A stretch of 64,000 nucleotides of DNA, taken from contig JAKLGJ010000002.1 of the NCBI GenBank assembly GCA_022710715.1, forward strand, positions 81,977 through 145,976, written 5' to 3'. The DNA comes from Candidatus Omnitrophota bacterium. GTDB lineage: Bacteria; Omnitrophota; Gorgyraeia; Gygaellales; Profunditerraquicolaceae. Numbering within the stretch: position 1 is the stretch's first letter; every line of letters begins with the position of its first letter. This document shows positions 5,630 through 58,900 of this stretch, one piece after another. Under the pieces are notes generated by a model, which did not search any database, was not told the origin of the DNA, and saw only the letters and a program-made list of their open reading frames with translations. The translations under genes were made by a program, and so were the position numbers.

Positions 5630-6022
5630 TTACGTTGAGTTTTTTACAAAAGTATCAATTTCCCGGCTGTCGTTTTTCTCAATGGAGGTAAAAACGATGC
5701 CCAGGCGGTATTCATTGTTCGCCAGGATCTGGCGGTAGCGGACCGTCCCTTCTATTTCCATGGGACCATAAAAGCTGACGTCATCGCTATCGACCTTGAA
5801 GAGGGTGAATTTCATGGACAGGATCGAGTCTTCGGGGAGATCGTAATTGGTCAGGATGGCCAGGCCGCCTTCGCTCAAGTCGATCATGGTCGCGCGGATT
5901 TCCTTGTTCTCAACCACCATGCGCATCTTGGAAGCGTTGTTGATGCGAAAAACAATGGCCAGGTTGACCCGTAACCGTTTGAATTTCCTGCGTTCGCGCT
6001 GCGCGTCAAATGCCGCAACCAT
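5630..6022 (-). CDS. PilZ domain protein (c-di-GMP receptor)
   Basis: RxxxR motif (RERRKFKRLRV) and D-x-S-x-G-G motif (DLSEGGLAI), the two halves of the PilZ c-di-GMP binding site; 130 aa. Confidence 0.75.
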   Translation of the reverse strand: MVAAFDAQRERRKFKRLRVNLAIVFRINNASKMRMVVENKEIRATMIDLSEGGLAILTNYDLPEDSILSMKFTLFKVDSDDVSFYGPMEIEGTVRYRQILANNEYRLGIVFTSIEKNDSREIDTFVKNST

Positions 6023-18437: not shown

Positions 18438-19064
18438 TTATCCTTCCGGCGCGACCCCGCAGGAAAGCAAGTCGCGTTGAAGCTGCTCTACCCCGGTATA
18501 TACAAAAGCGCGCAGGCCCAGCGCAGCGGCAGCGGCGATCAGCTCGGCCCGGTCATCGACATAGAACGTTTCCTGGGGAGCGCTGCCCATTGCGTCAAGC
18601 GCGGCGCGGTAAATGCGCGGATCTGGTTTAGTCATTCCCAGAGCGTACGAGGTAAAAATGCAGTCAAAAACGTCAAAAACGGGGAAGGCGGTGCGCAGAT
18701 ACTCGAAATGCAGTTTGTTCACATTGGAAAGCAATCCCACCCGATAACGGCCGCGCAGGCTCTTTGCCAGTTGATACACCCGCTTATTGTGATCATTCAT
18801 GAAGAATATACCGTTCCAGATGCGCACGAACTCGCGAAAACCGATATCGATCCCCGTCTGCCGTTTGATCTGCGCGAAAAACGCTTCCGGCGTAAGGGCG
18901 CCTTCTTCAAAACGCATCACGAGTGCGGAGTTAAAAAAGAAGTCGAACAGTTCCTGCGGGCTACGGGTACTGCGGGCGGCAATGGCACGGGCGGCGATTA
19001 GATGGTCGAAATCGATCAACACCCTGCCCAGGTCGAAGAGTACGCAACGGATGGGACTCGGCAC
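18438..19064 (-). CDS. HAD-superfamily hydrolase, subfamily IA
   Basis: Motif I CVLFDLGRVLIDFD (DxD-type nucleophile), motif II LLSN, motif IV YVDD; 208 aa. Confidence 0.75.
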   Translation of the reverse strand: MPSPIRCVLFDLGRVLIDFDHLIAARAIAARSTRSPQELFDFFFNSALVMRFEEGALTPEAFFAQIKRQTGIDIGFREFVRIWNGIFFMNDHNKRVYQLAKSLRGRYRVGLLSNVNKLHFEYLRTAFPVFDVFDCIFTSYALGMTKPDPRIYRAALDAMGSAPQETFYVDDRAELIAAAAALGLRAFVYTGVEQLQRDLLSCGVAPEG

Positions 19065-20029
19065 TAATTATTATTACCTTTTGATTTTTTAAACAGGTCC
19101 AGGAACCGATCTTCGTAATCCTTATAGACATTCCACTTATCCAGCTCGAATTTCAGTTCATTCGCCTTGGTGATATCATTCTTGGCCTGGAGAAAAAGCT
19201 TCTCGATCTTTTCCTTGATCGAAACAGGCAGTTTGGTAAGCTGACTCAGCGATTTCTTGATCTTTTCGATCTCATCTTCGCCGATAGGGCCGGGCGTGGG
19301 GCCGACCTTGAGATAATCCAGCAAGCCGTTGATCTGGCCTTCCATCGCATGCGCCTGTTCCGTGAGATCGGTAAAATCAAAACTCATCCCCAGCACGCCG
19401 GCAAGCACTTCCAGTACTGCCTGGGACGCTTTGGGATTTTCAATCTGAATAGTATAGAGCGGAATCTCGCCCAGCAGGCAAAACCCGTGGAATCCTTCCT
19501 GTTTGGCCATTCCCAGGAACAACCCGTTCAGCCCGCTGATATGACCTTCCTGCAACATCTGGGCGTTGCATTTTTTAAGCATGGCATTGAGATCTTTGGA
19601 GGTCGCGCTGTACCAAACCGCGGGATTCTGATTGTGGTCGATCGGCTGGGGCATGGCGGCGAAACTGACGACGGTCTTTACTTTGAAGCTCTTCGCCAGG
19701 CTCATAATCCGATTACAGTACTCCTCGGCCCGGATCAGATCCGGCTGGGCGTCGCTGATAAAGATGATCAGGTCGTTTTTTCCGGTTTTGCTCTTGTGGA
19801 AATAAAATTTGTTGAACGGCAATTCAGGCAGGTCGAGCACGCCCTCATGGATATAACTTTCTACCAGATAAAAGAAATCCTTGCTGGGGATTTCGGCAAA
19901 TTCCTCGGCTTTAAGCTTATCTACAAGATACGTTGCCGCCCTGAACGCGACTTCTCCCATCCCCGGCCAGGCTACCAGAAGATAGGGCGTCTTCAGACGC
20001 GGCCTTTTAGTGATTTTGATTCCTTCCAT
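19064..20029 (-). CDS. PAC2-family (proteasome assembly chaperone 2-like) protein
   Basis: N-terminal LLVAWPGMGEVAFRAATYLV resembles the conserved PAC2 G-P-G-x-G-x-V-G start; size (321 aa) fits bacterial PAC2 proteins. Confidence 0.45.
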   Translation of the reverse strand: MEGIKITKRPRLKTPYLLVAWPGMGEVAFRAATYLVDKLKAEEFAEIPSKDFFYLVESYIHEGVLDLPELPFNKFYFHKSKTGKNDLIIFISDAQPDLIRAEEYCNRIMSLAKSFKVKTVVSFAAMPQPIDHNQNPAVWYSATSKDLNAMLKKCNAQMLQEGHISGLNGLFLGMAKQEGFHGFCLLGEIPLYTIQIENPKASQAVLEVLAGVLGMSFDFTDLTEQAHAMEGQINGLLDYLKVGPTPGPIGEDEIEKIKKSLSQLTKLPVSIKEKIEKLFLQAKNDITKANELKFELDKWNVYKDYEDRFLDLFKKSKGNNN

Positions 20030-21461: not shown

Positions 21462-24305
21462 TTAGAAGTATTGGGTTATTCCCACCCACAGGCGGGTATC
21501 TTCTCGAGTCTCATGCAGCGCCCTGGCCGCATCCAGCCGAACCACCAGTTTTTCCAGAGGGCCGGCAAGGTCGAAATGGAAGCGCATGCCGAAACCGGCG
21601 TCTTTCTTGAACGCGGCGGCGGAAAAATCCGAGTACCAGGCTTTGCCGGCATCAAAAAAGAGCACTCCCTGTATTTTACTTAAACGCAGGATATTGTCCA
21701 GAAAATACCAACCCAGCTCATCGCGCAACGGGAAACGGTATTCCGCGCTTCCCAGCATCATGCGCGCACCGGGCAACGTCTTGCCGGCGTAACCGCGCAA
21801 TCCATCAGCGCCGCCGATCTCGAAAAGGTTTTTGTCCGCATGCGCTCCCCAGCCCGTTTTGCCGCGCACGGCAAGCACGTGCTGCTGCCGCTCGAGCACA
21901 ACGCAATAGCGCTGCAACTCCGCACTGGTCCGCCAGAACGCCTGGGTCCCTCCCAGGAAGTGACCGGCTGATTCCACGACGTGAATAAAACGCCAGCCGT
22001 ACTGCGGATCGCCGTACGGGCCAAAACGGCCCAGAGACCCGGCAAGCCCCAGGATCGCCTCGTCTTTCCTGCGGTAATGCTGGTTACGAATATCCTCTCT
22101 GCCGTTTAAACCCGGGCCGGTGTCGAATTTCTGATCGCGGATCAGGTAGAGGCTGATATGATCATTCACCCCGAACAAGCCGTAATTCGCCGGCCAGAGT
22201 TCTTTTCTGAAGTAAAGCTTGCCGCCGGCCACATCGTGACCGCGCTTGCTCGATTCGTAATCGAAAATCTCGAAACCCGCGGCTTGCTGTTTATTCCCCA
22301 GATGAGAAAGTTCATACCCCAGCACCGAATCCACGGCTTTGCCGTTAAAATCATACTGCGAGCTTATCCGCATCAGCGCATCAAACGGCTTCTGGACCGA
22401 AGCGGCTGCGCCCAGCGCAGCGCCTCCCACCGTCGGGCCGCATACCGCATTATATGAATCCCGGGGCAAAAGTACCGGCAATTCATAGGCAAAGAAATAC
22501 CAGGGCACCGGTTTGAAAGTTTTCCTGGCCGGCCAGTGATTATTGGTGCGGTCTATATCCAGCATGACGGCCTGTTCCGCGTCGACGTCCACGCGCACCA
22601 CTTTCTTCCCCGCGGCGACGGGAATAACGTGCACAGCCCCCCTGCCGTCCCAGTCATCGACCAGGCTCGACCCGTCGGCATAAGCGATCCGGGTCCGGAC
22701 CGGGATCTCCAGCGCCCCCTTGTTGCCGATCGCCACTTCTCCCGCCCCCACCCGCTTAACCACAAAATCACATTGTTTGCCGGTGCGCAGCCACTGATCA
22801 AAGAATGACGACAGGTCCTGACCGGCTTCCTCGCCGGCAATGCGGGCAAAGGTATCCACCGAAATGGTGCGAAAAGCGAATTCACGGGTATAACGCGCGA
22901 CGATACGGTCGAACACCTCGCGCCCCAGCTGTTTCTCAAGCATCCAGAGAATCGCAGCTCCCTTGCCGTAGGCCAGCGCAAAAATCGATGACGGTTCCCT
23001 GAAACTGGACAATTCGCCGATAACCGGACGGTCGTAGCCGCTTTTAGCCAGGTAGAGATACCGGGTGACCATGGAATCGCGAAAAGTAAAATTGGGAACC
23101 AGCCGACGCAGCAGGGGCGGCAGATCCATAACCCCGGCATTCTCGCCATACGTGTGCTCAAGGTATCGCAGAACCCAGTAGGAATTCATCCCTTCATCCA
23201 TGAACATCTCACGGTACTCGTCGGAACCGACGATGTTGTAAAACCACTGATGGCTGGTCTCATGAGAAACCAGGAAATCGAAATAGCGGTTCAGAAAATG
23301 CGGCAACCGGTAGAACCGGGTGTCGATAAAGATGAGCCCCGAAGACTGGTCTCCCCCGAATCCCAGGTAGCTGGGCACGACATGGAATTCTTTGTACGGA
23401 TAGGGGCCGAATCGCTGTTGATGGAACCGGATCAACCCGGCGGCGTGGCGAGCGGCGCGTCCGGCCGCTTCTTTGTTGCCGTCGACATAGTACGCGTTGA
23501 TCCGGATGCCGTCCTGTTCGAGAGAGACGGCCTCGAATGCACTGGAAATCCCCAGCCCCAGATCGCGCATGGGGGCCGCGCTTTCTAAAAACAATTCCTG
23601 CGTTCCGTCCGGCAGACGCTTCAGCGTTTTAAGTGCGCAGCCGGAAACCAGCGTGTATTCCTGCGGTAGACGGGCTTTCAGACGATACCGCGCCGCTTCG
23701 CTGAAGAAAGGCTGATGATAGATGTAGAACGGATAGCGGTGCCAGCCCTGCTTGTCCAGAACGCACAGCATGGGATACCAGCGGGTCAGCGTCGTGATCT
23801 GCCTGTGCCAGCCGAAACGGCCATAGCAATGAGGGATAGCAACCTGATAGGCAAGCGTGACCTCCGTGGCTTTGCCCGGCGCCAGCGCCGCGGGAAGAAT
23901 AATCTTGAGCAGCGTCTGATCCTGGCCTTCGATGCTATAATCGAGCGGATGCTGCGCCGCGCTCACTTGAAGAATCCGCAGATCTCCGCTCTGGAATCCT
24001 TCCGGATACGGATTGACTTTAAAGTAGCCGGCGTACCGGCTCATAAAGCGGATTTCCTGCGGCGAATAACGACGATGCGGATAGATATGAAAATAAAGCT
24101 CGCGGACAGGCTGATCGGAATTGTTGGTGAAGCTGACGCGCTGCTGCGCCTCGATACGGTGGCGGACGGGATCAAAAGAAGCCTCAATATCGTACTGCGG
24201 CTCTCCGGCAGCGAATGCCCCGGCAGGAAGCAGTACGGCGCAGCCGCAAAAAGCAGCCCATATGATACAAACGGACGGGATTATACGCGTGTAAAAGTTT
24301 CTCAC
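21462..24305 (-). CDS. secreted M1-family zinc metallopeptidase fused to a C-terminal Omp85/BamA-type outer-membrane beta-barrel (type Vd-like autotransporter architecture)
   Basis: Signal peptide (IIPSVCIIWAAFCGCAVLLPAGAFA). HEXXH-x18-E zincin site (HETSHQWFYNIVGSDEYREMFMDEGMNSYW). C-terminal ~330 aa carries Omp85-barrel motifs (GGADGLRGYAGKTL, AEYRFPL, FFDAGKAW, GFGMRFHFDLAGPLEKLVVRLDAA) and ends in aromatic ...GITQYF. Confidence 0.7.
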   Translation of the reverse strand: MRNFYTRIIPSVCIIWAAFCGCAVLLPAGAFAAGEPQYDIEASFDPVRHRIEAQQRVSFTNNSDQPVRELYFHIYPHRRYSPQEIRFMSRYAGYFKVNPYPEGFQSGDLRILQVSAAQHPLDYSIEGQDQTLLKIILPAALAPGKATEVTLAYQVAIPHCYGRFGWHRQITTLTRWYPMLCVLDKQGWHRYPFYIYHQPFFSEAARYRLKARLPQEYTLVSGCALKTLKRLPDGTQELFLESAAPMRDLGLGISSAFEAVSLEQDGIRINAYYVDGNKEAAGRAARHAAGLIRFHQQRFGPYPYKEFHVVPSYLGFGGDQSSGLIFIDTRFYRLPHFLNRYFDFLVSHETSHQWFYNIVGSDEYREMFMDEGMNSYWVLRYLEHTYGENAGVMDLPPLLRRLVPNFTFRDSMVTRYLYLAKSGYDRPVIGELSSFREPSSIFALAYGKGAAILWMLEKQLGREVFDRIVARYTREFAFRTISVDTFARIAGEEAGQDLSSFFDQWLRTGKQCDFVVKRVGAGEVAIGNKGALEIPVRTRIAYADGSSLVDDWDGRGAVHVIPVAAGKKVVRVDVDAEQAVMLDIDRTNNHWPARKTFKPVPWYFFAYELPVLLPRDSYNAVCGPTVGGAALGAAASVQKPFDALMRISSQYDFNGKAVDSVLGYELSHLGNKQQAAGFEIFDYESSKRGHDVAGGKLYFRKELWPANYGLFGVNDHISLYLIRDQKFDTGPGLNGREDIRNQHYRRKDEAILGLAGSLGRFGPYGDPQYGWRFIHVVESAGHFLGGTQAFWRTSAELQRYCVVLERQQHVLAVRGKTGWGAHADKNLFEIGGADGLRGYAGKTLPGARMMLGSAEYRFPLRDELGWYFLDNILRLSKIQGVLFFDAGKAWYSDFSAAAFKKDAGFGMRFHFDLAGPLEKLVVRLDAARALHETREDTRLWVGITQYF

Positions 24306-24959: not shown

Positions 24960-26912
24960 TTATTCTTTGAAAACCAGCGGGTTGTAATTATAGTAGGCAA
25001 AGATGGTATACGCCGTTCCGGAAACAGAACCGGTGCTCTTGCCTTGAGGCGTCATCCAGCCATGCCCGGTATCGACCACTTCCTGGCTGGCATACGGCAA
25101 ACATCCCTCTCCCTGGCCTGTCGGAGAAGGGCTGCTGATGATCATCGTGCACAAATCCGCCAGATACTCGTCTGCTTTCGACTCGTAGAGCCGGGCTTTT
25201 GACGTCATGTTCTGACGGTGATAGTATGCGGCCATGATGCGCAGCGACAGCACCATCTGCGCGGTCCATTCCGTAGAAATAATGCCCCCCCTGGCCACAT
25301 GCCGCTGCGGAGCGAAATCGAATCCCCTGATCGAAACTTTCTCTTTGCCGGACAGCGTCTGCTCTATGGTCACCGCGCAATTCTCTTCGGCGAATTCCAC
25401 GATTTTGTCGGGGTTCATGCCGAGTTCGTTCAGCTTCTCCGGGCCGAGAGCGGCGATAGACCAGGCATAGGTATCCGTGGCGATCGTCGAATCCCCTTTG
25501 CCGCGTTTGATCGGGATTTCAGACTCATCATACGAATGCCGCATCAACCAGTCCAGGACTTTGTTCCGGGCATCAAGATAAACCGGCTTGCCGGTCAACT
25601 TATAAAGCATATGGAAGAACGCATAGGCATCCAGATTGTGCTCGGTAGCAAACCAGTTCACGTCCGGTCCTCCCCGCACTCCGCCTTCCGGATCCTGCGC
25701 CTGCAGATCCATGATTTTCCGGGCTATCTCTTCGGCCAGCACAAGGTATTTTGCGTCCTGCGCCTTGCGCACGTAGTGAACCAGAGCCATGCCGACCCAG
25801 AGATTCGGACCGCTGTGCACGATATATTCGGCGGGGGCGCCGTCATTGACATAATAGGCGTTCACGAACAGACCGTTGGACCGCTTGGCTTTCTTGACGA
25901 AGAAATCCAGTATTTTCCTGGCTCGCTCGAAATCCGAGAAGAATATGTGCGCTTGCGCCACCAGCGCCTGATCGTAAATGAACGCCCAGCCCTTAACATC
26001 CTTATCCCCCTCAAAGCTCATCACCAGGCCGGTGCGCGGATTCTGATGCACGGTCAGCCACTTATACATCCTGTCGAAGTTCGCCTGTTCCAGCACGGTC
26101 TTTTTCTGATCCAGCCGCAGCAGTTCTTCGGTTACCACGCTCTCTTTATGCTGCAGAGCGATCAATTGCTCCTGGAACGCCGCCTTGTCCCGGGTCAGCG
26201 CATCGATCATGCCGTTGAGTTCGCTTACCCGGCCTGCGGCGCGCACTTCTTCCTGCTTGACCTTTTCCGCCAGAAGCTTTTTCTCATCCTCGATGGTCTG
26301 TATGCGCAACTGCAACGCCTGAATATTTAACTGCAGATCGTCTTTTTCCCTGTTGATCTGTTTGATCTTGTTCTTCGCGGTATTGGATTCCCGTAATATC
26401 TGCAACAGTTGTTTGACCAGCTGCCGGTTGCCTTCCACCAGCTTCATGTTCACATACCCGTTGAATCCGATACCGGCCGCCAGGATCAGGATAAGACTTA
26501 TGATCGCCGGCACGAACAACCGTTTGGTCCAGGCATAGCGGATGATCCGCTGCTGGCCTCTGGGATCGACCATCTCGTAGGTCAAGCCGACGGAAAATGT
26601 TTCTTCTTCCTGCGCAGCGGCACGCGTCCAGGCGATCTTGGCGCTGGCGCTGACCGCCGGACGGTTCAGGGGCATGGTGATCTTCAGCGCGATCACTGCC
26701 TGACGCGATTCGATCAAGCTGACAATCTCCGGCTTGAGCTGATGCACATCCAGCAGAATCCCGCCGTTACCCACGTTATGGGTGAATCCCTGGATCCAAT
26801 CGGACAGCGGATGCGCGCCATCGGGACTCATCAACCTGAAGAGCACCGGGAACACTGAATCCAACCTGATATACTGCCTGCGTTCGTCCGGACGTTGGTT
26901 GTTATGGATCAT
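24960..26912 (-). CDS. PilZ domain / transmembrane / coiled-coil protein with C-terminal (alpha/alpha)6 glycoside-hydrolase-like domain
   Basis: N-terminal PilZ motifs (RRQYIRL ... NVGNGGILL), one TM segment (VPAIISLILILAAGIGF), ~120 aa of heptad-rich coiled coil, then a ~380-aa domain with a six-hairpin-glycosidase-like pattern of aromatic/acidic residues. Confidence 0.55.
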   Translation of the reverse strand: MIHNNQRPDERRQYIRLDSVFPVLFRLMSPDGAHPLSDWIQGFTHNVGNGGILLDVHQLKPEIVSLIESRQAVIALKITMPLNRPAVSASAKIAWTRAAAQEEETFSVGLTYEMVDPRGQQRIIRYAWTKRLFVPAIISLILILAAGIGFNGYVNMKLVEGNRQLVKQLLQILRESNTAKNKIKQINREKDDLQLNIQALQLRIQTIEDEKKLLAEKVKQEEVRAAGRVSELNGMIDALTRDKAAFQEQLIALQHKESVVTEELLRLDQKKTVLEQANFDRMYKWLTVHQNPRTGLVMSFEGDKDVKGWAFIYDQALVAQAHIFFSDFERARKILDFFVKKAKRSNGLFVNAYYVNDGAPAEYIVHSGPNLWVGMALVHYVRKAQDAKYLVLAEEIARKIMDLQAQDPEGGVRGGPDVNWFATEHNLDAYAFFHMLYKLTGKPVYLDARNKVLDWLMRHSYDESEIPIKRGKGDSTIATDTYAWSIAALGPEKLNELGMNPDKIVEFAEENCAVTIEQTLSGKEKVSIRGFDFAPQRHVARGGIISTEWTAQMVLSLRIMAAYYHRQNMTSKARLYESKADEYLADLCTMIISSPSPTGQGEGCLPYASQEVVDTGHGWMTPQGKSTGSVSGTAYTIFAYYNYNPLVFKE

Positions 26913-29272
26913 CGCCGCGTCCTTTCTAAGATAATCCGCTGTTTGTTCTTCTTGGCCAGCGATTCAAAAAAACGTTTGAATTCCGCATATTCGGCCCGCA
27001 TGACCTTGTCTTTTTTCATTTCGACCGTCTGTTTAAAGCGAATCCGGCTGCCCGTGTGGTCGCAGGTGGCGGTAAACTTCATCCAGGGCGAATCTTCATA
27101 AACCGGCTCGGGCAGGAAAAATGGTTTGTATCCCGCCGGAAGCGCAATGGTATACTCGATCAGCCGTTGTTCGAGGAAACCAAAATCGATGGGATACCGA
27201 CGCAGATCCTTGGCTACCAACGTTTTATCCAGCACTGCCAGCTGCGGCGCGATGCGGAACGCGCCGGAAGCGATCAGGAATTCCGGTCCGCTGAAATCGT
27301 AACGCAGTACAACCGGCTTCTGCAACAACTCCAGGTTTAAAGCATCGTACCGGCTCGCGCGCGCGCCGATGGAAAGATCCTGCAGGTTGGAATTGATGGT
27401 ATCCTGGACTTCTTCGGGCATGGAATAGAGCAGCCAGTAACGTTGCGATTGATCGAAGATACCCTTGGTGATCACGGTTTTCTCCCCCGTGATCGTCTCA
27501 TCGGGTTGCATGCGGATGGTTACTGCCACAGAGGCCTGATTGTGTTCAGGCGGGAAGAGCGGCGTTGTCTCGATGGCAAAACCGTTCTCCTTGATCACCA
27601 GCACATGGCGATTCTGATCTCCGTCGGGTAGATCGCCGAACGCGCAGGTTTCCGCGGTCGGATCCACGAATACCGGTTTGCCGTCAAGCTCAACCGCGGC
27701 GATGGCGTGGTTGAACATCATCGAGGGAAAATCCGGCTGGAGATCGAAAATGTCCCTCGTGGGAATGAGCACCGGCCAGGCGGTGAGTCCTGCTTCGCGC
27801 ATCATGGTTACCAGGAGAATAGCCTGATCTTTACAATCGCCGTATTTGTTCTTAAAAATATCTGCCGCCTGATGCGGCTCATAGCCGGCCTGGCCGTATT
27901 CTACGGCGACATAGCGGATCTTCTGGGCGCAGAAAGCATGGACCGCCTGGGCTTTGGCCAGCGGCGTAGCCGCCGCTGCGGTCAACTCTCTGACTTTCGA
28001 CTTGATCGCCGCGTCCGCGGCGATCTTCTCCCTGGCCAACGGCCACCACCAATCGTAGATGGACTGCCAGTCTTTAAAAGACGAAACGCTGAATGCCGGA
28101 TTGATCTCAACCACCGGCGGCATCTTGGATTCGGGAACAATCTGCGGAACATCCCTGAATTCCCACTGGTAAAGGCGGGCAGCGGGCTCTTCGGTGACCC
28201 GGGCCTGAAGGTTGGCGCCGAAATCATTATAGTCCGGGTTATACTTCTTGATATTCACCTGCCTGTCCCGGGGAGTCTGGAGGGTAAACCGCTGATAGAT
28301 CACCGGTTCCGAAGATTGCACGGTATACGGGATGACAAAATCATTTTTGTTGACCAGCTGGTAATGATGAATCCGCGCTTTGTATTCGATGGTGGCGCCT
28401 TCGACGATTTCCGGGAAAGAAATCAGCAGGACCCTGGCGTTGCTGTAGAGAGGAAAGTTGAGATACTTGGAAACGTCCCGGATATGGCGGCTGCCGACAT
28501 CCACGACCGTTCCATCCGGCTTGATCGTCCGGGCATACTCGACTTCCACTTTCTCGTCGGTGGAATCGTACTCGATCGGCATCTCGGCAAATCGCTCTTT
28601 CCCGCGCTCGTTAAGGATCTGGATCACAAAATGCATGGTCGTCAACGCTTTATTATCCGCGGTGATCTCTTCTTTCTCGTCCGCGAATAAAACCAGCGCG
28701 CCTGCCTGGGGATACCGGCTGGCCGGCGGTGCGGCGGCCAGGATTGCGGCAACCTGCGGGTCGATATCCCTGATCTGTACCGGAGTATGTTCTTTCCGGA
28801 TCTCCTGCTCCCGTTCGCGGGCAAGCCGGGCATAGTCTCCGGAACGGATCAATGCGTACTGTTGAAGCGCCTGATCAAAAAGATTGAGCTTCTCCTCGGT
28901 CAACCCGCGATAATACCGATAATCCGCGTTCTGCGATTCCCCGCCTTTGAACACTTCCAGCGCATCGGTATACCTGCCCAGGTGGAACAACGAGATACCC
29001 TGCAGCGTGCGCGCTTCCGGCAGGGCCGACTTGCCGAATTCCTCGACCGCACGCGCATATTCTCCTTTATCGAATAAAAGCTTGCCCAGCTCCAGGCGCA
29101 CCGAAGCGGAATCCCCGCCGCTGCGCAGAACGTTCTCATAGTCCCTGACTGCCGCGGCATAGTAATCGGCTGATTTTGCCGCGGCGGTGCGGGCCTGCTC
29201 AAGCGCATCCTTCTGCTGACATCCGGATAAACAGGCGCAGACGCACAGCGCCACTGCCGCGATCTTTCTCAT
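26909..29272 (-). CDS. TPR-repeat lipoprotein with DUF3857-like and transglutaminase-like cysteine-protease domains
   Basis: Lipobox (ACLSGC), N-terminal TPR-like helical repeats, transglutaminase core YGDCKDQAILLVTMMREAGL with downstream His/Asp; 787 aa. Confidence 0.65.
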   Translation of the reverse strand: MRKIAAVALCVCACLSGCQQKDALEQARTAAAKSADYYAAAVRDYENVLRSGGDSASVRLELGKLLFDKGEYARAVEEFGKSALPEARTLQGISLFHLGRYTDALEVFKGGESQNADYRYYRGLTEEKLNLFDQALQQYALIRSGDYARLAREREQEIRKEHTPVQIRDIDPQVAAILAAAPPASRYPQAGALVLFADEKEEITADNKALTTMHFVIQILNERGKERFAEMPIEYDSTDEKVEVEYARTIKPDGTVVDVGSRHIRDVSKYLNFPLYSNARVLLISFPEIVEGATIEYKARIHHYQLVNKNDFVIPYTVQSSEPVIYQRFTLQTPRDRQVNIKKYNPDYNDFGANLQARVTEEPAARLYQWEFRDVPQIVPESKMPPVVEINPAFSVSSFKDWQSIYDWWWPLAREKIAADAAIKSKVRELTAAAATPLAKAQAVHAFCAQKIRYVAVEYGQAGYEPHQAADIFKNKYGDCKDQAILLVTMMREAGLTAWPVLIPTRDIFDLQPDFPSMMFNHAIAAVELDGKPVFVDPTAETCAFGDLPDGDQNRHVLVIKENGFAIETTPLFPPEHNQASVAVTIRMQPDETITGEKTVITKGIFDQSQRYWLLYSMPEEVQDTINSNLQDLSIGARASRYDALNLELLQKPVVLRYDFSGPEFLIASGAFRIAPQLAVLDKTLVAKDLRRYPIDFGFLEQRLIEYTIALPAGYKPFFLPEPVYEDSPWMKFTATCDHTGSRIRFKQTVEMKKDKVMRAEYAEFKRFFESLAKKNKQRIILERTRR

Positions 29273-30090
29273 AAAGCCTCCAGTTCAACAATATGGTCGA
29301 TTTTGAACGTGCGTTCTTCATTGCGCAGACAACAGAACCCTACCAGATAGACTCCCCTGTCCTGGCGTCTGATCTCGCGGGGAATTACTTCTCGCCGGGT
29401 CATCTGGGCATCGGTTGTCGAAAGATATTTTATCCTAAGTCTGGCGCCCAAGTCAATCGCTTCCTGGATCTCTGCTATTTTCTGATTCTGGACATCCTCA
29501 AGAGCGCTGAAGTTCAGGCTGAATAAACGCAGGAAGGTTTTAAAATCATGTATCCCTTTTTCCCGCAGCATGCCGGCCAACCGCATAAAAACCGCCCAGG
29601 TCAACTCAACATCGGAAAGCGCGCGGTGCTTTTGCTCGGCGGAAAAACCCAGATGCTGCGCCACAAACCATAAGGCGTGCCGGGGAAGCCCGGGGAGCAA
29701 TCGACGGGACATGGTGAGAATATCCACTGCCGGACGATCGGCAAGCGGCTGTTTGCCGATAAGGCGCAGTTCGCTGTTAAGAAACCCCAGGTCAAAGGGC
29801 ATATTATAGGAACAGATACAACTCTCTTTCACAAAATCGAGGAACCCCGGCATCGCCTCTTCTATCGGCGGCGCGTCGCGCAGCATCTCCTGCGATATCC
29901 GGTTTACCGCGAATGCGCCGGGAGAAACTTCGCGCCGGGGATTGACCAGCGTCTGAAAAGTGGCGAGTTTCTGCGTGCCCCGGCACTTCAAAGCCGCCAG
30001 TTCGATCACCCGGTCCCCGCAGGCCGGATTCAAACCGGTGGTCTCGGTATCCACAATGGCGAACTCGACATCCTCAATGGCGCGGTGCAT
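29269..30090 (-). CDS. DEDD-family 3'-5' exonuclease (DnaQ/epsilon-like) with C-terminal WYL-like domain
   Basis: Exo I FAIVDTETTGL, Exo II/III with HxAxxD (HRALSDVE). C-terminal ...RREVIPREIRRQDRGVYLVGFCCLRNEERTFKIDHI fits the WYL-domain pattern (R...P..l...g.WYL.g.c....e.R.FrldRI). Start taken at the internal Met; the track ORF's 5' end overlaps the next gene. Confidence 0.7.
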   Translation of the reverse strand: MHRAIEDVEFAIVDTETTGLNPACGDRVIELAALKCRGTQKLATFQTLVNPRREVSPGAFAVNRISQEMLRDAPPIEEAMPGFLDFVKESCICSYNMPFDLGFLNSELRLIGKQPLADRPAVDILTMSRRLLPGLPRHALWFVAQHLGFSAEQKHRALSDVELTWAVFMRLAGMLREKGIHDFKTFLRLFSLNFSALEDVQNQKIAEIQEAIDLGARLRIKYLSTTDAQMTRREVIPREIRRQDRGVYLVGFCCLRNEERTFKIDHIVELEAL

Positions 30091-31000
30091 CACTGCTATC
30101 CTTTCTTCTCTGGACGATATAACTGGGAACCAGCCGTACCGGACGGTAGGAAAGTTTGACCTTCTTAAGGTTCTCCAGGCCCGAATCATCCATGGCATTG
30201 ATGAAAGCGTGCTCGCCGAGATCCCGGCTGAACCGCTGAAAGATAAACTGGCTTAAGCCTTTGACCGACAGATCGGCGACCTCATACAGTATACAGAATA
30301 TGTCCGGATTAAGTTTGTATCCGCAGGTAAAGGCTTTGACCTGCCGATCCACGGTAACCACGCGGCCCTCTATATCCAGGGCGTCGTAATGCGCGAATAC
30401 CGTTTCCAGCGTCTTGAGCGTATCCTGCAGCATCCCGCAATACACATGGTCCGGCGTCTGCCGGCTGCGTTGATCCATCCAGGAGCGGTAAAGCGCCAGG
30501 CAGGCGGCGGCCTGCTGACGGCGCAGCCGCTGATAAACAAAACGATACTGCCGGGTAAAGTAATTAACGCTGGCGCGTTTGGATTTAAAAGCATCTCCTT
30601 TTAGCTGCGCCAGTGAGGAGCGGGTATACAGATAATCATACGATTTAAAAACCGACTCCAGCCCGAAGCTGCGCAACCGTTCAAGGGCGGGCTCTTCTAC
30701 ATTCTCGATGCGGGACACGGTTTTATTCCGGTTGAAACGGTCCATGATCGAGAACGCCTTCTCCACGATGCGCGGAGTCGCTTCCCGGCCCAGAGGAGGA
30801 AGATAGAGAAAACACCCCAGGGAATCTTTAAAAAAGACACACAGGCTGCCGTCAATGAGCGTCCAGCGAATATCGTAGAGCGGCGTCCAGTTGTAGATGG
30901 AGGCAAAGGAATAAACCGCCAGTTCATGTTCCCGGCAGCGCAGGAATCGCTCGAACAGTTTTTTATCGGCCAGCTGCAGAGGATTAAGGTCGGCTCTCAT
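30074..31000 (-). CDS. DUF2156-like protein (aminoacyl-phosphatidylglycerol synthase C-domain-like / GNAT-fold)
   Basis: 308 aa soluble protein; the resemblance to the MprF C-terminal DUF2156 family is from memory only, so low confidence. Confidence 0.35.
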   Translation of the reverse strand: MRADLNPLQLADKKLFERFLRCREHELAVYSFASIYNWTPLYDIRWTLIDGSLCVFFKDSLGCFLYLPPLGREATPRIVEKAFSIMDRFNRNKTVSRIENVEEPALERLRSFGLESVFKSYDYLYTRSSLAQLKGDAFKSKRASVNYFTRQYRFVYQRLRRQQAAACLALYRSWMDQRSRQTPDHVYCGMLQDTLKTLETVFAHYDALDIEGRVVTVDRQVKAFTCGYKLNPDIFCILYEVADLSVKGLSQFIFQRFSRDLGEHAFINAMDDSGLENLKKVKLSYRPVRLVPSYIVQRRKDSSDAPRH

Positions 31001-32079: not shown

Positions 32080-33018
32080 CTAATCCTTCCTTCTATCCTT
32101 TACATAAACGCTTCCGCCGAGGCTCTTGGCGTAATGTTTGAGCTCTGCGGCGATCTGCCCGATCTGGCCCACATGGGAAAACATCCGTAACTCGTTGGAT
32201 AATACGGCGATGGAAACGCCCAGAAGCGGCGTTTTGCTTATTTCTCCCTGGCGGTTTTTCGCTACAATGAAACCGCGCTGGATATCCTCCGGCGAGTAAA
32301 AAACCTGCTTGCCCTTTTCGAAATCATCGACGATCTGCTTGGAGACGTCTTCCCACCGGTCGACCGTGGTAATAAAAATAAAATCGTCGCCGCCGATATG
32401 CCCGAGAAAATCGTTGGGCTCGCCCTGTTCTTTCAACGCCTTCATGATCACCTCGGCGGTGAACACAATCACTTTATCCCCCATCTCGAAGCCGTGCAGG
32501 TCGTTGAACTCCTTGAATTTATTCAGATCAACATATCCCACGGCAAACAGACTCTGGGATTTTAAACGCACTTCCATCTCTTTAAACAGAGAAATGTTTC
32601 CGGGCAGCTTGGTCAGGGGGTTAGCGTCGAGATCCCGGGTCATGCGCACGAAAGAAGCTTTCACGCGGGCCAGGAATTCCGCGGGGTCAAAGGGCCGCTC
32701 CACATAATCATCCGCGCCGGCGTAAATACCCTTGATCTTGGCCATGGAATCCTTGGTATCCATGAGCAGAATAATGCTGGTATGGCGCAGCTTGAAATTT
32801 CCGCGGATATGTTTGCAGATCTCGATACCGCTGATGCCCGGGCAGGAGAAATCGGTAATCACCAGCTCAAAACCCACCCTTTCCATGATCGCAAAAGCCT
32901 CGGTCTGGGAATGGCAGGGCGTGACCTGGTACCCCTCCCCCATCAGCAGAGCGGTAATGAATTCTTCCGACTGCGTGTCGCCTATAATCAAGAGAATATT
33001 ATTTTCAGTCGAGCTCAT
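32080..33018 (-). CDS. response regulator with GGDEF (diguanylate cyclase-like) output domain; degenerate GGDDF motif
   Basis: REC domain (phospho-acceptor region [13 protein letters not shown], conserved K-P region) followed by a GGDEF domain with RxGGDDF ([12 protein letters not shown]) and conserved upstream D/N residues. Confidence 0.8.
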
Positions 33019-33027
33019 CGTTGATCT

Positions 33028-33639
33028 TTATTTCAGGGAATCCAGGATGTTCTTGCAGGATTCCTTGACTTTAACCATGGCCTGGTCATTAAGGATCAGG
33101 AAAAACTTTCCATTGATCTTCTCCGTGGGCTCCTTGAATTCCGCCTCCACCAGGAGAATATAAGCCTCGCGGTTGTAGGTGGAGACCACCATGGCCAGGA
33201 CTTGCTGCAGCGACCCGCTGACCAGCGTCGGGATGGAGGGGATAACGATCGTCTTGAGGATCATGCTTAGCGCCCCGACATAGGAAGAAATGATGATGTT
33301 GCCGACTTCTTTGATAATCGACAGCCCCATCTCGGTGAAGAGTCCGCTTTTGCGTTCATCGGGATGGTCCCGGTAACACATATCGATCAGCTTGAAAGCG
33401 CTCTTTTCGTCGAGAACAAAGATGATCTCGCCTTTAAGACCGCTTAAGATATTACAGGTGACGCTCAAAACAATCTGACTGGTTTCAATCTCACTCAAGG
33501 CTTGCTGGGCAGGAACGATGCTCAAGGCAGGAAGTTCAAGGTTCAGCTTGCGTCCCAGCATTTCGGATAACGCCATGCTTCCGTGACCGGCGGCGATACT
33601 GCTGACTTCACGCAGGATATCCATCTCGTCTCTCATCAT
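33028..33639 (-). CDS. CheC/CheX-family chemotaxis phosphatase-like protein
   Basis: Two CheC-type segments (LREVSSIAAGHGSMALSEMLGRKLNLELP and IKEVGNIIISSYVGALSMIL) matching the E-x2-N-x22-P consensus; 203 aa. Immediately upstream of the REC-GGDEF gene. Confidence 0.6.
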   Translation of the reverse strand: MMRDEMDILREVSSIAAGHGSMALSEMLGRKLNLELPALSIVPAQQALSEIETSQIVLSVTCNILSGLKGEIIFVLDEKSAFKLIDMCYRDHPDERKSGLFTEMGLSIIKEVGNIIISSYVGALSMILKTIVIPSIPTLVSGSLQQVLAMVVSTYNREAYILLVEAEFKEPTEKINGKFFLILNDQAMVKVKESCKNILDSLK

Positions 33640-55760: not shown

Positions 55761-55912
55761 AAAAAAAAACCAACCGGTTAAGGTTGGTTACTGTGGTTCG
55801 CCTGAGATTGGTCCATTCTTTTTGTGCATGTATCCGCCTTGCCTGCCTCGCGGGGCAGGCTTAAAGGTTATCTCGATTTGTAATAGTGTAGCACAAAAAA
55901 GAGTTTTGTCAA
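55761..55912 (-). promoter_or_regulatory. pyr operon leader: sigma70-like promoter, putative PyrR-binding stem-loop and Rho-independent attenuator terminator
   Basis: On the minus strand: TTGACA (55912..55907), 16-nt spacer, TACACT (55890..55885). Stem-loop GCCTGCCCCGCGAGGCAGGCAAGG (about 55860..55837) resembles the PyrR binding loop (..GAGGC.GGCAAGG). Terminator AACCAACCTTAACCGGTTGGTT + T9 (55789..55761) ends 10 nt before the pyrR ATG. Confidence 0.5.
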
Positions 55913-58900
55913 GCCGGAATCTGCGTTTCCAGCCAGATCAGCGTTTCTTTCAGGGATGTATCTGTAGCAATCCCCTGGGTTTCCTCCATTTTCAACTCCT
56001 GGGCCAACAACGCTAAAATCTCCTGCCGGGCCTGCGCAATACGCCCCTGCTGATAACACTGCTGCACATAACAGATGATCTCCTGCGGCTTAAGCAACCT
56101 GCCCTGCGCCAGGATAACCTGCAAATCCTGCGCCTGTAGCGCTGCCGCCGGATTCAAGGCCACAGGAGCCGCGATCCAGGCAGGCGCCGGTGAGGAACCG
56201 GAAACCGGCAGGCTGCGCAGATCGATACCGCCGGTTTCATCCGGCTTATGCTCGCGCGCCGCCGGCTCGAGCGGCCGGGATTGCGCGGCCTGCTGCGCTT
56301 CGTACTCCCGCACCATGGCTTCAATCCCCCGTTCCTGCTCTTCGACATTCATCTGGATGGCTTTCATTCGTTCGCGGATAACCGCCAGGAGAGGAAGGAC
56401 CTGCTCCTGAAAAGCGGTTAACGATTCGGCGATCCGGCCGCTGTTTTTCACGTCCTGCGCGTCGCGATCCCAGAACGCCTTGAACAACAAGTGTTCCTGG
56501 CTGAAAGTAAGCTTTTGATTAAGGCATACTTCGCTTAAAAGCTTCAGGGCTTGCAGCCGTGTCAGCGGGCCTGCCGTTTCCAATAAAACAGCGAGTACCG
56601 ATAACGATTGGTCGATGATCATATTGTCCCAGCTTTTCAAGCCGGCGGCAAGATCAGACATCTGTTCAGCGGCGGCGGACAACTCGATTCCCGGCTTATC
56701 TTTCAAAGCGGTGATGATCAGGCTGCGCGCTTCCTGCGCCACCTCGCGCGAATTGATATACTCCAACCCCAGCGCTATAAGCATCTCCCTGGGCAGTTCT
56801 ATGCGCTGTTTCGTTTCCACCAGCTGCGCTTTCTCCCGTATTTCATGCAGGGCGATCGCTTTGTCTAAAGCCCGGCCCGGCCGTTCAAGATCATGCAATG
56901 CGGCTTTCAATTTCATCGCCTCGACCGTTCCCGAGACCTCCCGGCCGAAATTGTCGATGATCTCGATCAACCGCTGTGCTGTGCCGCCGTCGCCGGCGAT
57001 CACTTCCGCTTTGAATGACGGGATATCCTTCACCGCAGTCGCATCTCCTTCCTTGAGATCGAGCTCGCCGCCCAGGGAATCCAGGTAACGGGTCACCCGG
57101 CTGGGCGGGACTTTCAAATGGAACGATTCTCCTTTGGCCGCTCTGGCCAGGACCCTCACCCCCAGCGCGGCGGAAACTTCCCGGGTCATCGCGTTCGCTG
57201 CGGCATCCTGCACTTCTTTTAATTCATCGGTGTTAGTATAGACTTTTTCTTTCACATACACGAATTCCCCGCTTTCCGTAAACACTCCGTGCAGCAGAAC
57301 GAACCCGATCACGTTCTCTTCCCCGTCCCGCAGCAGGATGATCAATTCCTGGGCGTCGGAGATAAAACTCATCAGGCTGTGTTTGTAGTTGCCGGAATAA
57401 TCGCTTCTCTGGCAATTCCCCGAGCCGCTGGCGCCGTACCGGCCGATCTTCAGGGTGTCTTTAAGATCGAAGCTGATCTCCGCGGATACTTTTGCCGGGA
57501 CTGCCGCGGTCAGCGATTCGTCGGTCAAAGCTTTTTGCGCGGCAGCCAGCAATGATTTAAGCATTCCGCGGGACTCGTTAATGAAATTGCGCGGTTTTTC
57601 CCGCGCGGCGAATTCCTGATCCAGGACAGCCAGATCGTCGATCATCCGCGATACGGTCAATTCTTTTTGCACGGCAGGATCTCTTTCGTAGGATTCGTAG
57701 AGCCGGATGATCTCCTGCCACTGCTCCCCGCGATCCATAGAAGCCAGGTTCTCGATCCGGCCGGCGATCTCCAGGACTTTTTGCACCAATATCCCATGAT
57801 CCTGCGCCTGCTGCCTGATCCGCTGCAGTTCCCGCAAGCGCCGCAGGGCTTCCCCCCGCGCCCGGTTCTCCCGTTTAGACAGCTTTTTCAGTCCCATTAA
57901 AACCTGGATATCCTTCTGATCGAGCGCCGCTTTCAACGCAGGACTTAATCCTGCCGGATCGGTTTTCTGCCCGGCCAGGAATTCGTCCGTTTCCTGCTCC
58001 AGCACCGCGATCCTGGCCTGATACGCTTTATCCGCTTCCGAAATCACCATTTCGCGCTCCGCGGAATGCTGCTGGTAATTTTGCATTGTGGTCTCGAAAT
58101 ATTGCCGGTACGCAGCGCGGTTGCTGAAATCTTCCTCGGCTTCGGCAGTCAATGATTCCAGATTCTCATAGGCGTCGCGCACCGCCTGCGGCGCCTGCGA
58201 CGCGGCATTGGCCTGGCTGCGCTTATAGTCCCGCACTCCCTGCCTGCCTCCGGTAAAATAAGCGATCACCAGGTCCCGCAGGATGGCGTAAGCCGCGGAT
58301 CTGCGGGGATAGTTCTGCTGGAAATTAAACATATCCATCATGAACTCGGTGTCCGCCAGAGCGGCCCGGGCGTCGGGATGAACCGGCCCCATCTCGAAAT
58401 CGAAGAACTTTTTATCCCCGATCCTGCTCTCCAGCCGGGAGATGAGCGCCGCGGAAAAATCGCCGGATTGCGCCGCGGCGTTGATTTCCTCGGCGGACAA
58501 TACTTTTTTCTGCTGCATCGCCGCAGCCGTAGCCAGGAAATTCAATCCGTCGACCAGGGCCTGGCCCTGCCCGGAAGATCTGCGGATGATCGTTTCCGCG
58601 GTTTCCCGGTATCGACTGTTGTCTTTCAACCAGTTCAGGGCCCGGAACAGGGCTACCCGGCGCTGATCATTGCCCCCCCTGATGGTTTCGACGATTTTAT
58701 CGGTGACCGCGGCATCGCTGAATCCCGCTCTCGAAAGGATATAGGCTTCGAAAACAGTCAGCCCCTGCACCGGCTCCTGGGACAAAAAGCCCTCGATCGG
58801 CTCCTTGAAGGTCGGGCTCATTGCGCCCAGAAGCCGCAATGACAAAGATTTTTCCCGGGCATTGATCTTCCCGGTCAGCCAGGCCAGCTCCACCAGGTCC

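Follow-up and report, generated by a model that had tools for sequence, protein, structure and literature searches.

A PilZ–transmembrane–coiled-coil protein with a six-hairpin barrel in Omnitrophota: possible c-di-GMP control of a periplasmic glycan-processing domain

The gene considered here is found on the minus strand of a 64-kb window, with the window being the whole 64,000-nucleotide stretch of Candidatus Omnitrophota DNA that was analyzed. In the list of open reading frames it begins with ATG and encodes 650 residues, and its start codon overlaps the stop codon of the gene upstream (ATGA); the start chosen also fits the N-termini of homologues. Four parts follow one another along the product, referred to below as the fusion protein, that is, a cytoplasmic PilZ domain, a single transmembrane (TM) helix, a coiled coil, and an extracytoplasmic six-hairpin, i.e., (alpha/alpha)6, barrel (Table 1). 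A preliminary description of this DNA had claimed just this arrangement, and all four parts have been verified by profiles, structure prediction, and fold searches.

Table 1. Features of the fusion gene, of its product, and of the adjacent upstream gene (A3, diverse barrel alignment; positions are those of the window).
Feature	Residues	Position	Strand	Basis or remark
PilZ-TM-coiled coil-(alpha/alpha)6 gene, whole	650 aa	24960..26912	-	ORF list; stop codon 24960-24962
PilZ domain	10-130	26523..26885	-	beta-barrel plus C-terminal helix (aa 117-130) running into TM helix
c-di-GMP motif 1, RRQYIR (RRxxxR)	11-16	26865..26882	-	motif and alignment
c-di-GMP motif 2, NVGNGG ([D/N]x[S/G]xxG)	46-51	26760..26777	-	Gly at canonical Ser position
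Single transmembrane helix, LFVPAIISLILILAAGIGFNG	132-152	26457..26519	-	only hydropathy peak (KD19 up to 2.62)
Predicted periplasmic heptad coiled coil	156-277	26082..26447	-	no Pro; L/K/E/Q-rich; heptad scoring
(alpha/alpha)6 barrel, unmodelled six-hairpin family	278-650	24963..26081	-	structure prediction and fold searches
Candidate catalytic residue, start of inner helix 1	D314	25971..25973	-	at least 90% conserved in A3
G-P-N-L-W, aligned with GH76 'DDNxW' motif	G368-P369-N370-L371-W372	25797..25811	-	HMM alignments
TEHNLD motif Glu, start of inner helix 5	E424	25641..25643	-	at least 90% in A3; invariant in orthologues
IATDTYAW motif Asp, start of inner helix 7	D480	25473..25475	-	at least 90% in A3; invariant in orthologues
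SEWT motif Glu, start of inner helix 9	E548	25269..25271	-	at least 90% in A3; invariant in orthologues
TPR-DUF3857-transglutaminase-core-DUF3858 lipoprotein	787 aa	26909..29272	-	Pfam; upstream operon partner

Homologues of the fusion protein number more than 1153, the best 120 of which are full-length and 58–65% identical, and one partial sequence of 571 aa is 97% identical. In species-representative genomes there are 410 matches, at 51–65% identity, with titles that are almost all Omnitrophota. Going by these sequence comparisons, orthologues of the fusion protein are spread throughout the candidate phylum Omnitrophota, where it is among the best-conserved envelope proteins. A literature search returned nothing specific on this PilZ–barrel architecture or on c-di-GMP biology in Omnitrophota.

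The N-terminal 130 residues are, as judged from motifs and predicted structure, a canonical PilZ domain with RRxxxR and [D/N]x[S/G]xxG motifs. That is, the model consists of a six-stranded beta-barrel and then a C-terminal alpha-helix, as in PilZ (PF07238). The claim that both motifs are intact nevertheless requires qualification, as RRQYIR is indeed present, and the Asn and last Gly of NVGNGG are as well, but Gly replaces the canonical Ser. Within motif 1, R12 and R16 are invariant in sets of 34 and 61 homologues, with 136 of 162 family members possessing RRxxxR and every matched member at least the R...R pair. For motif 2 the first residue across the family is N (140) or D (21), the third is S (93), G (56), or A (7), and the last is Gly; Ser and Gly are exchanged even among close orthologues, and this without decay elsewhere in the motif. 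Against Pfam PilZ the fusion protein scores 16.9 bits, which is under the 22.5 gathering threshold. The same model matches 32 of 34 orthologues at E<=0.01 (best 1.5e-10), and many homologues carry precomputed PF07238 annotation. In known fusion proteins, the C-terminal helix of the PilZ domain has been described as mediating interactions (10.1101/814665).

Past the PilZ domain is one TM helix, predicted to be N-in, and then a heptad coiled coil of 120–135 aa. The single TM and long coiled coil of the preliminary description are thereby borne out, residues 132–152 being the sole hydrophobic segment and residues 156–277 combining a heptad pattern with zero Pro. The TM flanks carry five K+R on the N side and three on the C side, which favors N-in, with net flank charges across the family of +4.3 versus +2.3, respectively; a single TM with N-in flanks is seen likewise in 137 of 162 homologues. 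Linker lengths cluster at 126, 133, and 147 aa (150 homologues), i.e., in heptad steps, and coiled-coil indels between homologues are mostly of 7 or 14 aa. Conservation among homologues is unusually high in the coil's N-terminal half. It is due to this coiled coil that some sources call relatives 'murein-binding lipoprotein Lpp'.

The barrel is predicted to consist of twelve helices forming two concentric layers of six, and no second copy of it was found elsewhere in the 64-kb window. It falls in no Pfam or NCBIfam family, with profile searches giving sub-threshold hints only, and distant stand-alone and multidomain members of the barrel family likewise have no above-threshold Pfam or NCBIfam assignment, their weak matches being to GlcNAc 2-epimerase, GH88, GH76, and GH127. 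A phmmer search of the barrel against the PDB gave an E of about 0.2, and searches of Pfam, NCBIfam, and PDB sequences returned no Glyco_hydro_15-type profile match. No characterized family fits, and fold-search scores are flat over hydrolases, epimerases/isomerases, and terpene cyclases, which makes hydrolysis one guess among several chemistries. The six-hairpin fold of the earlier proposal stands, but of the families which that proposal listed for checking, i.e., GH8, GH76, GH88/105, and AGE, none can be assigned to the barrel, as the scores are flat and the GH76 dyad is missing.

GH76, that is, the alpha-1,6-mannanases, is the only characterized family that is detectable by sequence for the barrel. 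A profile of the barrel family matches the GH76 structures 6u4z (E 2.4e-6) and 4mu9 (E 1.1e-5) in the PDB, and Pfam GH76 matches 14 of 34 family members, with the fusion protein itself reaching 12.5 bits, under the gathering score of 25.9. These GH76 sequence matches span only ~100 residues, i.e., about one hairpin pair. What the two have in common is the fold along with a helix-hairpin motif, N-x-W-x-G-x-A...Y...T-x-D-x-x-Y-L. Membership in GH76 nevertheless was rejected, as the catalytic Asp-Asp dyad, seen in 4mu9 (YDDNIW) and in 6shm (D136/D137), is aligned by HMMs with G368-P369, and in the 34 orthologues G368, P369, N370, and W372 all are invariant.

Other barrel residues are candidates for an active site. 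In A3, a diverse alignment with mean column identity of 23%, the residues conserved to at least 90% are Asp, Glu, and Tyr, with H425 varying. D314, E424, D480, E548, and Y607 are kept even in homologues of 24–30% identity. In the predicted model, with helix positions taken from DSSP, these five are found at the N-terminal ends of inner helices, the location of the active site in six-hairpin enzymes. Among orthologues the barrel is 65–72% identical. The catalytic residues of MmpH are Asp47, Asn101, and Glu262 (PMC9883506), and these are near D314, N370, and E548 (barrel positions 43, 99, and 277), though by linear position only. The MmpH/GH15-like clan GH-L, including dextran dextrinase (9ju0), an isomaltose glucohydrolase-like structure (5z3a), and glucoamylases, is only 10–14% identical to the barrel, with no sequence-level match. 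MmpH as characterized, furthermore, is a cytoplasmic mycobacterial enzyme with neither sensor nor membrane anchor, unlike the fusion protein.

The barrel exists outside of the fusion as well. Homologues in which the barrel stands alone carry a signal peptide or a lipobox, and therefore the barrel likely works outside of the cytoplasm. A divergent subfamily adjoins GH2 (GH2_C), GH94, and sugar ABC transporter genes. The family also is present within giant Omnitrophota proteins of 3,000–7,900 aa. For such giants, the 'Archaeovorins', a GH76-like fold (4C1S) has been predicted and linked to prey cell-wall degradation, and small pilZ genes have been reported to follow the giant genes (10.1101/2023.11.21.568195). 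There the barrel is a module of huge, multi-enzyme surface proteins, unlike the PilZ-TM-coiled coil-barrel protein, which is absent from that work and from the other literature searched.

Orthologues of the fusion gene have as conserved neighbors a transglutaminase-like lipoprotein gene upstream and a DNA glycosylase gene downstream. The upstream product has a lipobox, LSGC, and a Cys/His/Asp pattern. Its gene is directly upstream in 56 loci, with 59 of the 80 loci studied possessing >3 kb of upstream sequence, and it is upstream as well of a 39%-identical homologue (P0181), with PabB/PabC-like genes taking its place at one locus (L003). The fusion protein and the transglutaminase-like lipoprotein may be functionally linked. 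The most constant neighbors in the 80 loci, however, are DNA glycosylase, M20 peptidase, and PAC2 protein genes, and the synteny thus may represent conservation of genome order rather than shared function. Polysaccharide synthesis genes near to orthologues, which the preliminary description suggested be looked for, are missing from all 80 loci, and the window likewise has no genes for polysaccharide synthases or export beside the fusion gene.

Two further genes which that description placed in the window are indeed there. A stand-alone PilZ gene (5630..6022, minus strand) scores 49 bits and has both motifs, as RRKFKR and DLSEGG, and a REC-GGDEF gene (32080..33018, minus strand) is supported by Pfam, albeit with GGDDF as its signature, not GG[D/E]EF. 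A link of the fusion gene to that REC-GGDEF gene and a CheC gene, five genes upstream, was considered and rejected, the arrangement being limited to 4 of 80 loci and the signature being GGDDF. So too was a link to an M1 peptidase-Omp85 gene, two genes downstream, which is found in only 9 of 80 loci.

The reading that we favor, to which we would assign about even chances, is that the fusion protein sits in the inner membrane, responds to c-di-GMP, and has a glycan-processing domain in the periplasm. The cytoplasmic PilZ domain would bind c-di-GMP, and ligand-induced re-packing or dimerization of PilZ would then be passed across the membrane, that is, inside-out, as in Alg44 and LapD. A signal might be expected to cross as the PilZ C-terminal helix runs straight into the TM helix and coiled coil. 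On arrival it would alter how active the periplasmic barrel is, how it oligomerizes, or where it is positioned. The barrel most likely would be a glycoside hydrolase or transglycosylase employing a catalytic set of its own rather than the GH76 Asp-Asp dyad, a set that may be akin to the inverting Asp/Glu pair found in MmpH and in enzymes of the GH15 clan. The substrate would be a glycan of the envelope or periplasm in these bacteria, and the fusion protein may cooperate with the co-transcribed transglutaminase-like lipoprotein. The earlier suggestion of c-di-GMP-controlled trimming or turnover of exopolysaccharide, following BcsA-PilZ/BcsZ logic, is plausible in outline given the acids at the barrel mouth, the signal peptides of homologues, and the GH2/GH94/sugar-ABC loci. 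Telling against that suggestion are the missing synthase and export genes (window and 80 loci), the barrel's lack of a family assignment and of the GH76 dyad, and the rarity of REC-GGDEF linkage along with the GGDDF signature.

As an architectural analogue, Alg44, the alginate co-polymerase of Pseudomonas aeruginosa, is closer than BcsA/BcsZ. Like the fusion protein, Alg44 begins with a PilZ domain and crosses the membrane with one TM helix, leaving its C-terminal part in the periplasm. In Alg44, however, that part has an HlyD/membrane-fusion-protein fold and contains no enzyme domain, versus an (alpha/alpha)6 barrel here; no HlyD family match was found for the fusion protein in Pfam or NCBIfam, with an EmrA hit at E 0.23 being noise. 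Alg44 also sits in a polysaccharide synthesis operon, whereas no alginate-type or other synthase genes are near to the fusion gene. In the Bcs system PilZ is C-terminal on the BcsA synthase and gates its glycosyltransferase, with BcsZ (GH8) separate and unregulated. The fusion protein instead has sensor and barrel on one polypeptide, possesses no GT2 synthase, and GH8 membership of its barrel is without sequence support. LapD/LapG is similar in that an inner-membrane c-di-GMP receptor, by means of a cytoplasmic domain, controls a periplasmic hydrolytic activity (PMC3032553, PMC3032545). LapD, though, senses via a degenerate EAL domain and HAMP relay, sequesters a separate protease, and has no domain in common with the fusion protein, leaving this as an analogy only.

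Certain alternatives retain some part of this scheme. The barrel might, with the same topology kept and still under c-di-GMP control, act upon envelope glycan as a sugar or polymer epimerase/isomerase (AGE or cellobiose 2-epimerase-like), as a transglycosylase, or as a lyase, by analogy with Alg44 working with AlgG and AlgL in alginate export. This we view as rather unlikely, as the two-His pattern of AGE is not evident, H425 being variable and the conserved residues being Asp, Glu, and Tyr, and as AGE enzymes that have been characterized are, to our knowledge, cytoplasmic and act on free sugars, versus an extracytoplasmic barrel here. Alternatively, the barrel may not be catalytic at all but instead a glycan- or envelope-binding module, with the protein serving as a structural tether or ruler from the inner membrane to the cell wall or outer membrane, and with PilZ tuning the architecture of the envelope or bringing in a partner from the cytoplasm. 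A spacer would account for the quantized and conserved coiled-coil length, the well-conserved N-terminal half of the coil suggests partner binding, and both the Lpp-type naming of relatives and an absence of carbohydrate metabolism genes near to orthologues would fit. We nonetheless judge a tether to be quite unlikely: Retention of the four acids and Tyr at the barrel mouth in distant homologues is typical of an active site, as is the level of barrel identity among orthologues, and the barrel also is secreted on its own and is built into multi-enzyme giants.

A different concern is that the PilZ domain, at least in Gly48 variants such as this one, no longer senses c-di-GMP and is solely an interaction or anchoring domain, leaving the periplasmic enzyme constitutive. 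Pointing in that direction are the replacement of Ser by Gly in motif 2, the sub-threshold Pfam score, the GGDDF signature of the nearby GGDEF protein, and the loss of c-di-GMP binding by some stand-alone PilZ proteins (10.1101/814665). PilZ domains in fusion proteins, on the other hand, are reported to retain binding invariably (10.1101/814665), RRxxxR is undamaged and does not vary, motif 2 retains its Asn and last Gly, and the Ser/Gly interchange among close orthologues is not accompanied by other motif decay. We thus hold a non-sensing PilZ to be improbable, and retain c-di-GMP responsiveness as part of the favored reading.

PilZ receptors gate synthases (BcsA), co-polymerases (Alg44), flagellar motors, and transcription factors. 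A PilZ domain joined covalently, across the membrane, to an enzyme-fold domain in the periplasm was not among the descriptions found in our literature search, and the PilZ–TM–barrel layout would be a simple model for transmembrane, inside-out second-messenger signaling. Omnitrophota is an uncultured phylum of very small cells that probably are parasitic, host-attached, or predatory. It is conceivable, though a long shot, that the fusion protein represents a phylum-specific and near-universal inside-out switch in which cytoplasmic c-di-GMP directly gates an enzyme that cuts glycans in the periplasm and belongs to a new six-hairpin family, with the same module found on 'Archaeovorin' surface proteins. 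Were that true, one enzyme family, together with c-di-GMP via PilZ, would join remodeling of a cell's own envelope to attack on host or prey walls, doing so during the switch from free to attached life, and the barrel would become a CAZy family of its own, its catalytic set unlike those of GH76 and GH15. As the protein is well conserved and the barrel recurs in giant proteins, the barrel's substrate could inform how Omnitrophota build or breach envelopes. Even apart from such a switch, the barrel is a candidate new carbohydrate-active enzyme family, as it is an unmodelled six-hairpin family with an acidic set of its own, and the family consists of about 900 representative clusters.

The gene considered here, the PilZ fusion, joins a second-messenger receptor to what is predicted to be a periplasmic enzyme fold, a previously undescribed wiring that is near-universal in a poorly understood phylum. 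Its open reading frame is genuine, with an ATG start lying within the stop of the lipoprotein gene that precedes it (GCGATGATC), an N-terminus matching those of homologues in alignment, and a local GC content (~0.55-0.56) that is the same as in the remainder of the window. The Pfam PilZ profile scores 16.9 bits, i.e., below its 22.5 threshold, with profile positions 1-99 of 102 covered; among family members, 32 of 34 are matched at E<=0.01 (best E = 1.5e-10). The preliminary description took both PilZ motifs to be intact. This stands for RRxxxR (RRQYIR, aa 11-16), of which R12 and R16 are invariant among homologues, but not strictly for the second motif, NVGNGG (aa 46-51), where Gly replaces the Ser of canonical [D/N]xSxxG. 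As that position is a mixture of Ser (93), Gly (56), and Ala (7) across 161 fused family members, the Gly is read from alignment as a family-level polymorphism rather than as decay; the motif's first residue is Asn in 140 of these proteins and Asp in 21. The sole other PilZ protein within the window, a stand-alone form which had likewise been pointed out, is fully canonical in both motifs (see table).

Residues 132-152 are the only hydrophobic segment of the fusion, flanked by five Lys or Arg before and three after. Across 162 homologues, the N-side flank has a net charge of +4.3 against +2.3 for the C-side flank, and the former is the more positive in 137. From this bias, along with the lack of a signal peptide preceding the PilZ domain, the predicted topology is that originally proposed, in which a single transmembrane (TM) helix separates a PilZ domain in the cytoplasm from a C-terminus outside it. 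The heptad coiled coil thought to follow that helix holds up as well: Residues 156-277 lack Pro, abound in Leu, Lys, Glu, and Gln, and display a heptad pattern. Indels among homologues are found in the coil's variable centre, mostly as 7 or 14 residues, and distances from TM end to barrel start peak at 126 (12 proteins), 133 (52), and 147 (15) residues. These distances are heptad steps; the coiled coil is real, and its length is controlled. Near aa 220-235 there is a shift of register, and the coil may be either a continuous parallel stalk, which would be ~17 nm long, or instead an antiparallel hairpin.

The C-terminal barrel was modelled with AlphaFold2 (aa 272-650, 61 sequences; pLDDT 88, pTM 0.91), giving twelve long helices. 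Fold scores were 32.9 for dextran dextrinase (9ju0), 32.8 for MmpH (7qsj), 30.4 for a GH15-related glycosidase (5z3a), about 30 for AGE-family epimerases and isomerases, about 29 for glucoamylases, 28 for both GH8 and GH88, and 27 for GH76, all at 7-14% identity; Foldseek returned the same mixture of families (E ~1e-7). The six-hairpin fold previously suspected is certain, but the classes suggested for it (GH8, GH76, GH88/105, or AGE-like) do not follow, as family assignment from these scores is impossible. Pfam and NCBIfam provide no family membership by sequence, and a profile built from 39 diverse members matches only GH76-type structures (6u4z, 2.4e-6; 4mu9, 1.1e-5), and these over approximately one hairpin pair. 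The catalytic Asp-Asp of GH76 (4mu9 YDDNIW; 6shm D136/D137) aligns to Gly368-Pro369, which is invariant among orthologues, and catalytically the protein therefore does not qualify as GH76. The fold is known but the family that the barrel represents is new, nearest by sequence to GH76 and by structure to MmpH and GH15-like enzymes, while falling outside of the catalytic definition of the former and probably that of the latter.

Six-hairpin enzymes carry their active sites at the N-terminal ends of inner helices, and it is at such ends, in the model, that D314, E424, D480, E548, and Y607 each are found. These are among those residues conserved at 90% or more in an alignment with a mean column identity of 23%. 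In barrel numbering D314, N370, and E548 become 43, 99, and 277, a suggestive linear match to Asp47 (proposed acid), Asn101 (a subsite Asn), and Glu262 (proposed base) of MmpH (PMC9883506).

A full-length search yielded >1153 homologues, the best 120 of which have, with few exceptions, lengths of 635-671 aa and identities of 58-65%, with the named organisms among them Candidatus Omnitrophota/Omnitrophica. With one genome per GTDB species, 410 stretches encode homologues; of the 80 best, at 51-64% identity, almost all are full-length, contig ends truncating two, and almost all carry the label Omnitrophota, a phylum which also includes 'Candidatus Undivivens'. The window itself is therefore almost certainly Omnitrophota DNA, and the fusion is an orthologue shared throughout the phylum. 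Taken by itself, the barrel is found in 901 representative clusters (E<=1e-3) and in three forms: the PilZ-TM-coil-barrel type, with its TM near residue 130 (~70 of the 150 best clusters); many proteins, 370-450 aa long, that begin with a signal peptide or lipobox; and some giants (2,000-7,900 aa), of which all the named ones come from Omnitrophota (P0242, 7491 aa; P0218, 5959 aa). Large orphan proteins are typical of this phylum. The window possesses a 2663-aa ORF that has no Pfam match at E<=1e-3 and, by HMM search, no barrel domain. Giant Omnitrophota proteins have been described as having a GH76-like fold by structure prediction, with small pilZ genes downstream; the PilZ-TM-coil-barrel fusion is absent from that preprint (10.1101/2023.11.21.568195). 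A survey of PilZ architectures, including Alg44, BcsA, YcgR, and others, contains no hydrolase fusion (10.1101/814665), and our literature search for this architecture found no description.

Within the window the gene is part of a long co-directional run: CheC, REC-GGDEF, a tRNA-binding protein, a CxxCxxCC protein, an LPG_synthase_C protein, RNase T-WYL, the transglutaminase-like lipoprotein, the PilZ fusion, an HhH-GPD glycosylase, M1 peptidase-Omp85, an M20 peptidase, PAC2, and HAD. Among 80 orthologous loci, the glycosylase is directly downstream in 72 (>0.7 kb downstream is present in 71), the lipoprotein directly upstream in 56 (>3 kb upstream is present in 59), and the M20 peptidase present in 61.

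Features of the window and of loci encoding the divergent subfamily
Feature	Position	Strand	Details
Stand-alone PilZ	5630..6022	-	130 aa; Pfam 49 bits; RRKFKR, DLSEGG
PAC2 (proteasome assembly chaperone 2-like)	19064..20029	-	61/80 loci; mean 66% identity
M1 zinc aminopeptidase-Omp85	21462..24305	-	947 aa; 9/80 loci
PilZ fusion	24960..26912	-	650 aa; ATG start
Transglutaminase-like lipoprotein	26909..29272	-	787 aa; TPR, DUF3857, transglutaminase core, DUF3858
RNase T exonuclease-WYL	29269..30198	-	
LPG_synthase_C-like	30074..31000	-	
REC-GGDEF	32080..33018	-	GGDDF vs GG[D/E]EF; with CheC, 4/80 loci
CheC-like	33028..33639		paired with REC-GGDEF
Orphan ORF	55909..63900	-	2663 aa
Divergent locus L084	1-11319		~200-aa family at 10075-10692, 10729-11319
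Divergent locus L089	1-10479		
Divergent locus L090	1-13796		
Divergent locus L091	1-10566		

The lipoprotein is retained even next to a 39%-identical fusion, whereas in one relative PabB/PabC-like genes take its place. As it has a lipobox (LSGC) and a Cys/His/Asp pattern (YGDCKDQA, FNHA, FVDPT), it probably is a periplasmic cysteine peptidase-like enzyme, and plausibly is the fusion's functional partner in the periplasm. A REC-GGDEF gene does exist where one had been indicated, but its signature is noncanonical and its match to Pfam GGDEF stops after the first 89 of 161 positions; the protein may lack diguanylate cyclase activity. Linkage of this gene to the fusion is rare. The polysaccharide synthesis genes that relatives might have been expected to supply were not seen, with no synthesis or export genes linked to the fusion in the window or the 80 loci.

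As to other members of the run, PAC2 is among the best conserved of the syntenic block. M1 peptidase-Omp85 has an intact HETSH...E, an N-terminal signal-like segment, and a C-terminal outer-membrane barrel, and lies between the HhH-GPD and M20 genes where present; an Omp85 barrel as the anchor of a peptidase is, to our knowledge, unusual. The RNase T-WYL and LPG_synthase_C-like genes, both conserved in relatives' syntenic blocks, overlap by ~125 nt as listed, so one of the two starts probably lies further downstream.

A divergent PilZ-TM-coil-barrel subfamily (P0157, P0158, P0161, P0164; ~42% identity in the barrel) adjoins GH2_C-like glycosidases in all four of its loci and a GH94 phosphorylase plus sugar ABC transporter in two. 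An unannotated ~200-aa protein family recurs there, with DUF4416 coming next in two of the loci; the window has none of these genes. This context is independent, indirect support for a carbohydrate role of the protein type.

The closest known protein in architecture is Alg44, with its N-terminal PilZ domain, one TM helix, and periplasmic coiled-coil part; in logic, Alg44 and LapD/LapG are closest. The BcsA-PilZ/BcsZ analogy first drawn is looser, as there the hydrolase is a protein apart from the sensor and what PilZ gates is a synthase, whereas here there is one polypeptide. The C-terminal helix of other PilZ proteins serves in dimerisation and partner contacts (10.1101/814665). In the fusion this helix is continuous with TM helix and coil, such that c-di-GMP binding to the cytoplasmic PilZ domain would cause a re-packing that is passed outward across the membrane, where a periplasmic enzyme that processes glycans would change in activity, oligomeric state, or reach. 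This reading builds on the domain identities, topology, motifs, controlled coil length, and conserved acidic set shown here, and as a whole we give it about an even chance.

It is unlikely, if the leading alternative, that the barrel is instead an epimerase, isomerase, or transglycosylase; AGE-family enzymes are among its fold matches, as are glycosidases. Somewhat more doubtful still is a barrel that has no catalytic activity and acts as the binding module of an envelope tether, with which a coil of set length is compatible and against which the conserved acidic residues may be set. Equally doubtful is a loss of c-di-GMP sensing by the PilZ domain, to be weighed between the sub-threshold profile score with its motif 2 Gly and the invariant arginines. 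In P0184 (871 aa) and P0185 (967 aa) the barrel follows N-terminal regions that match MgtE_N/FliG weakly. This adds a third architecture to those of the PilZ fusion and the giant proteins, and a Thermoplasmata archaeon MAG is the labelled source of one cluster member.
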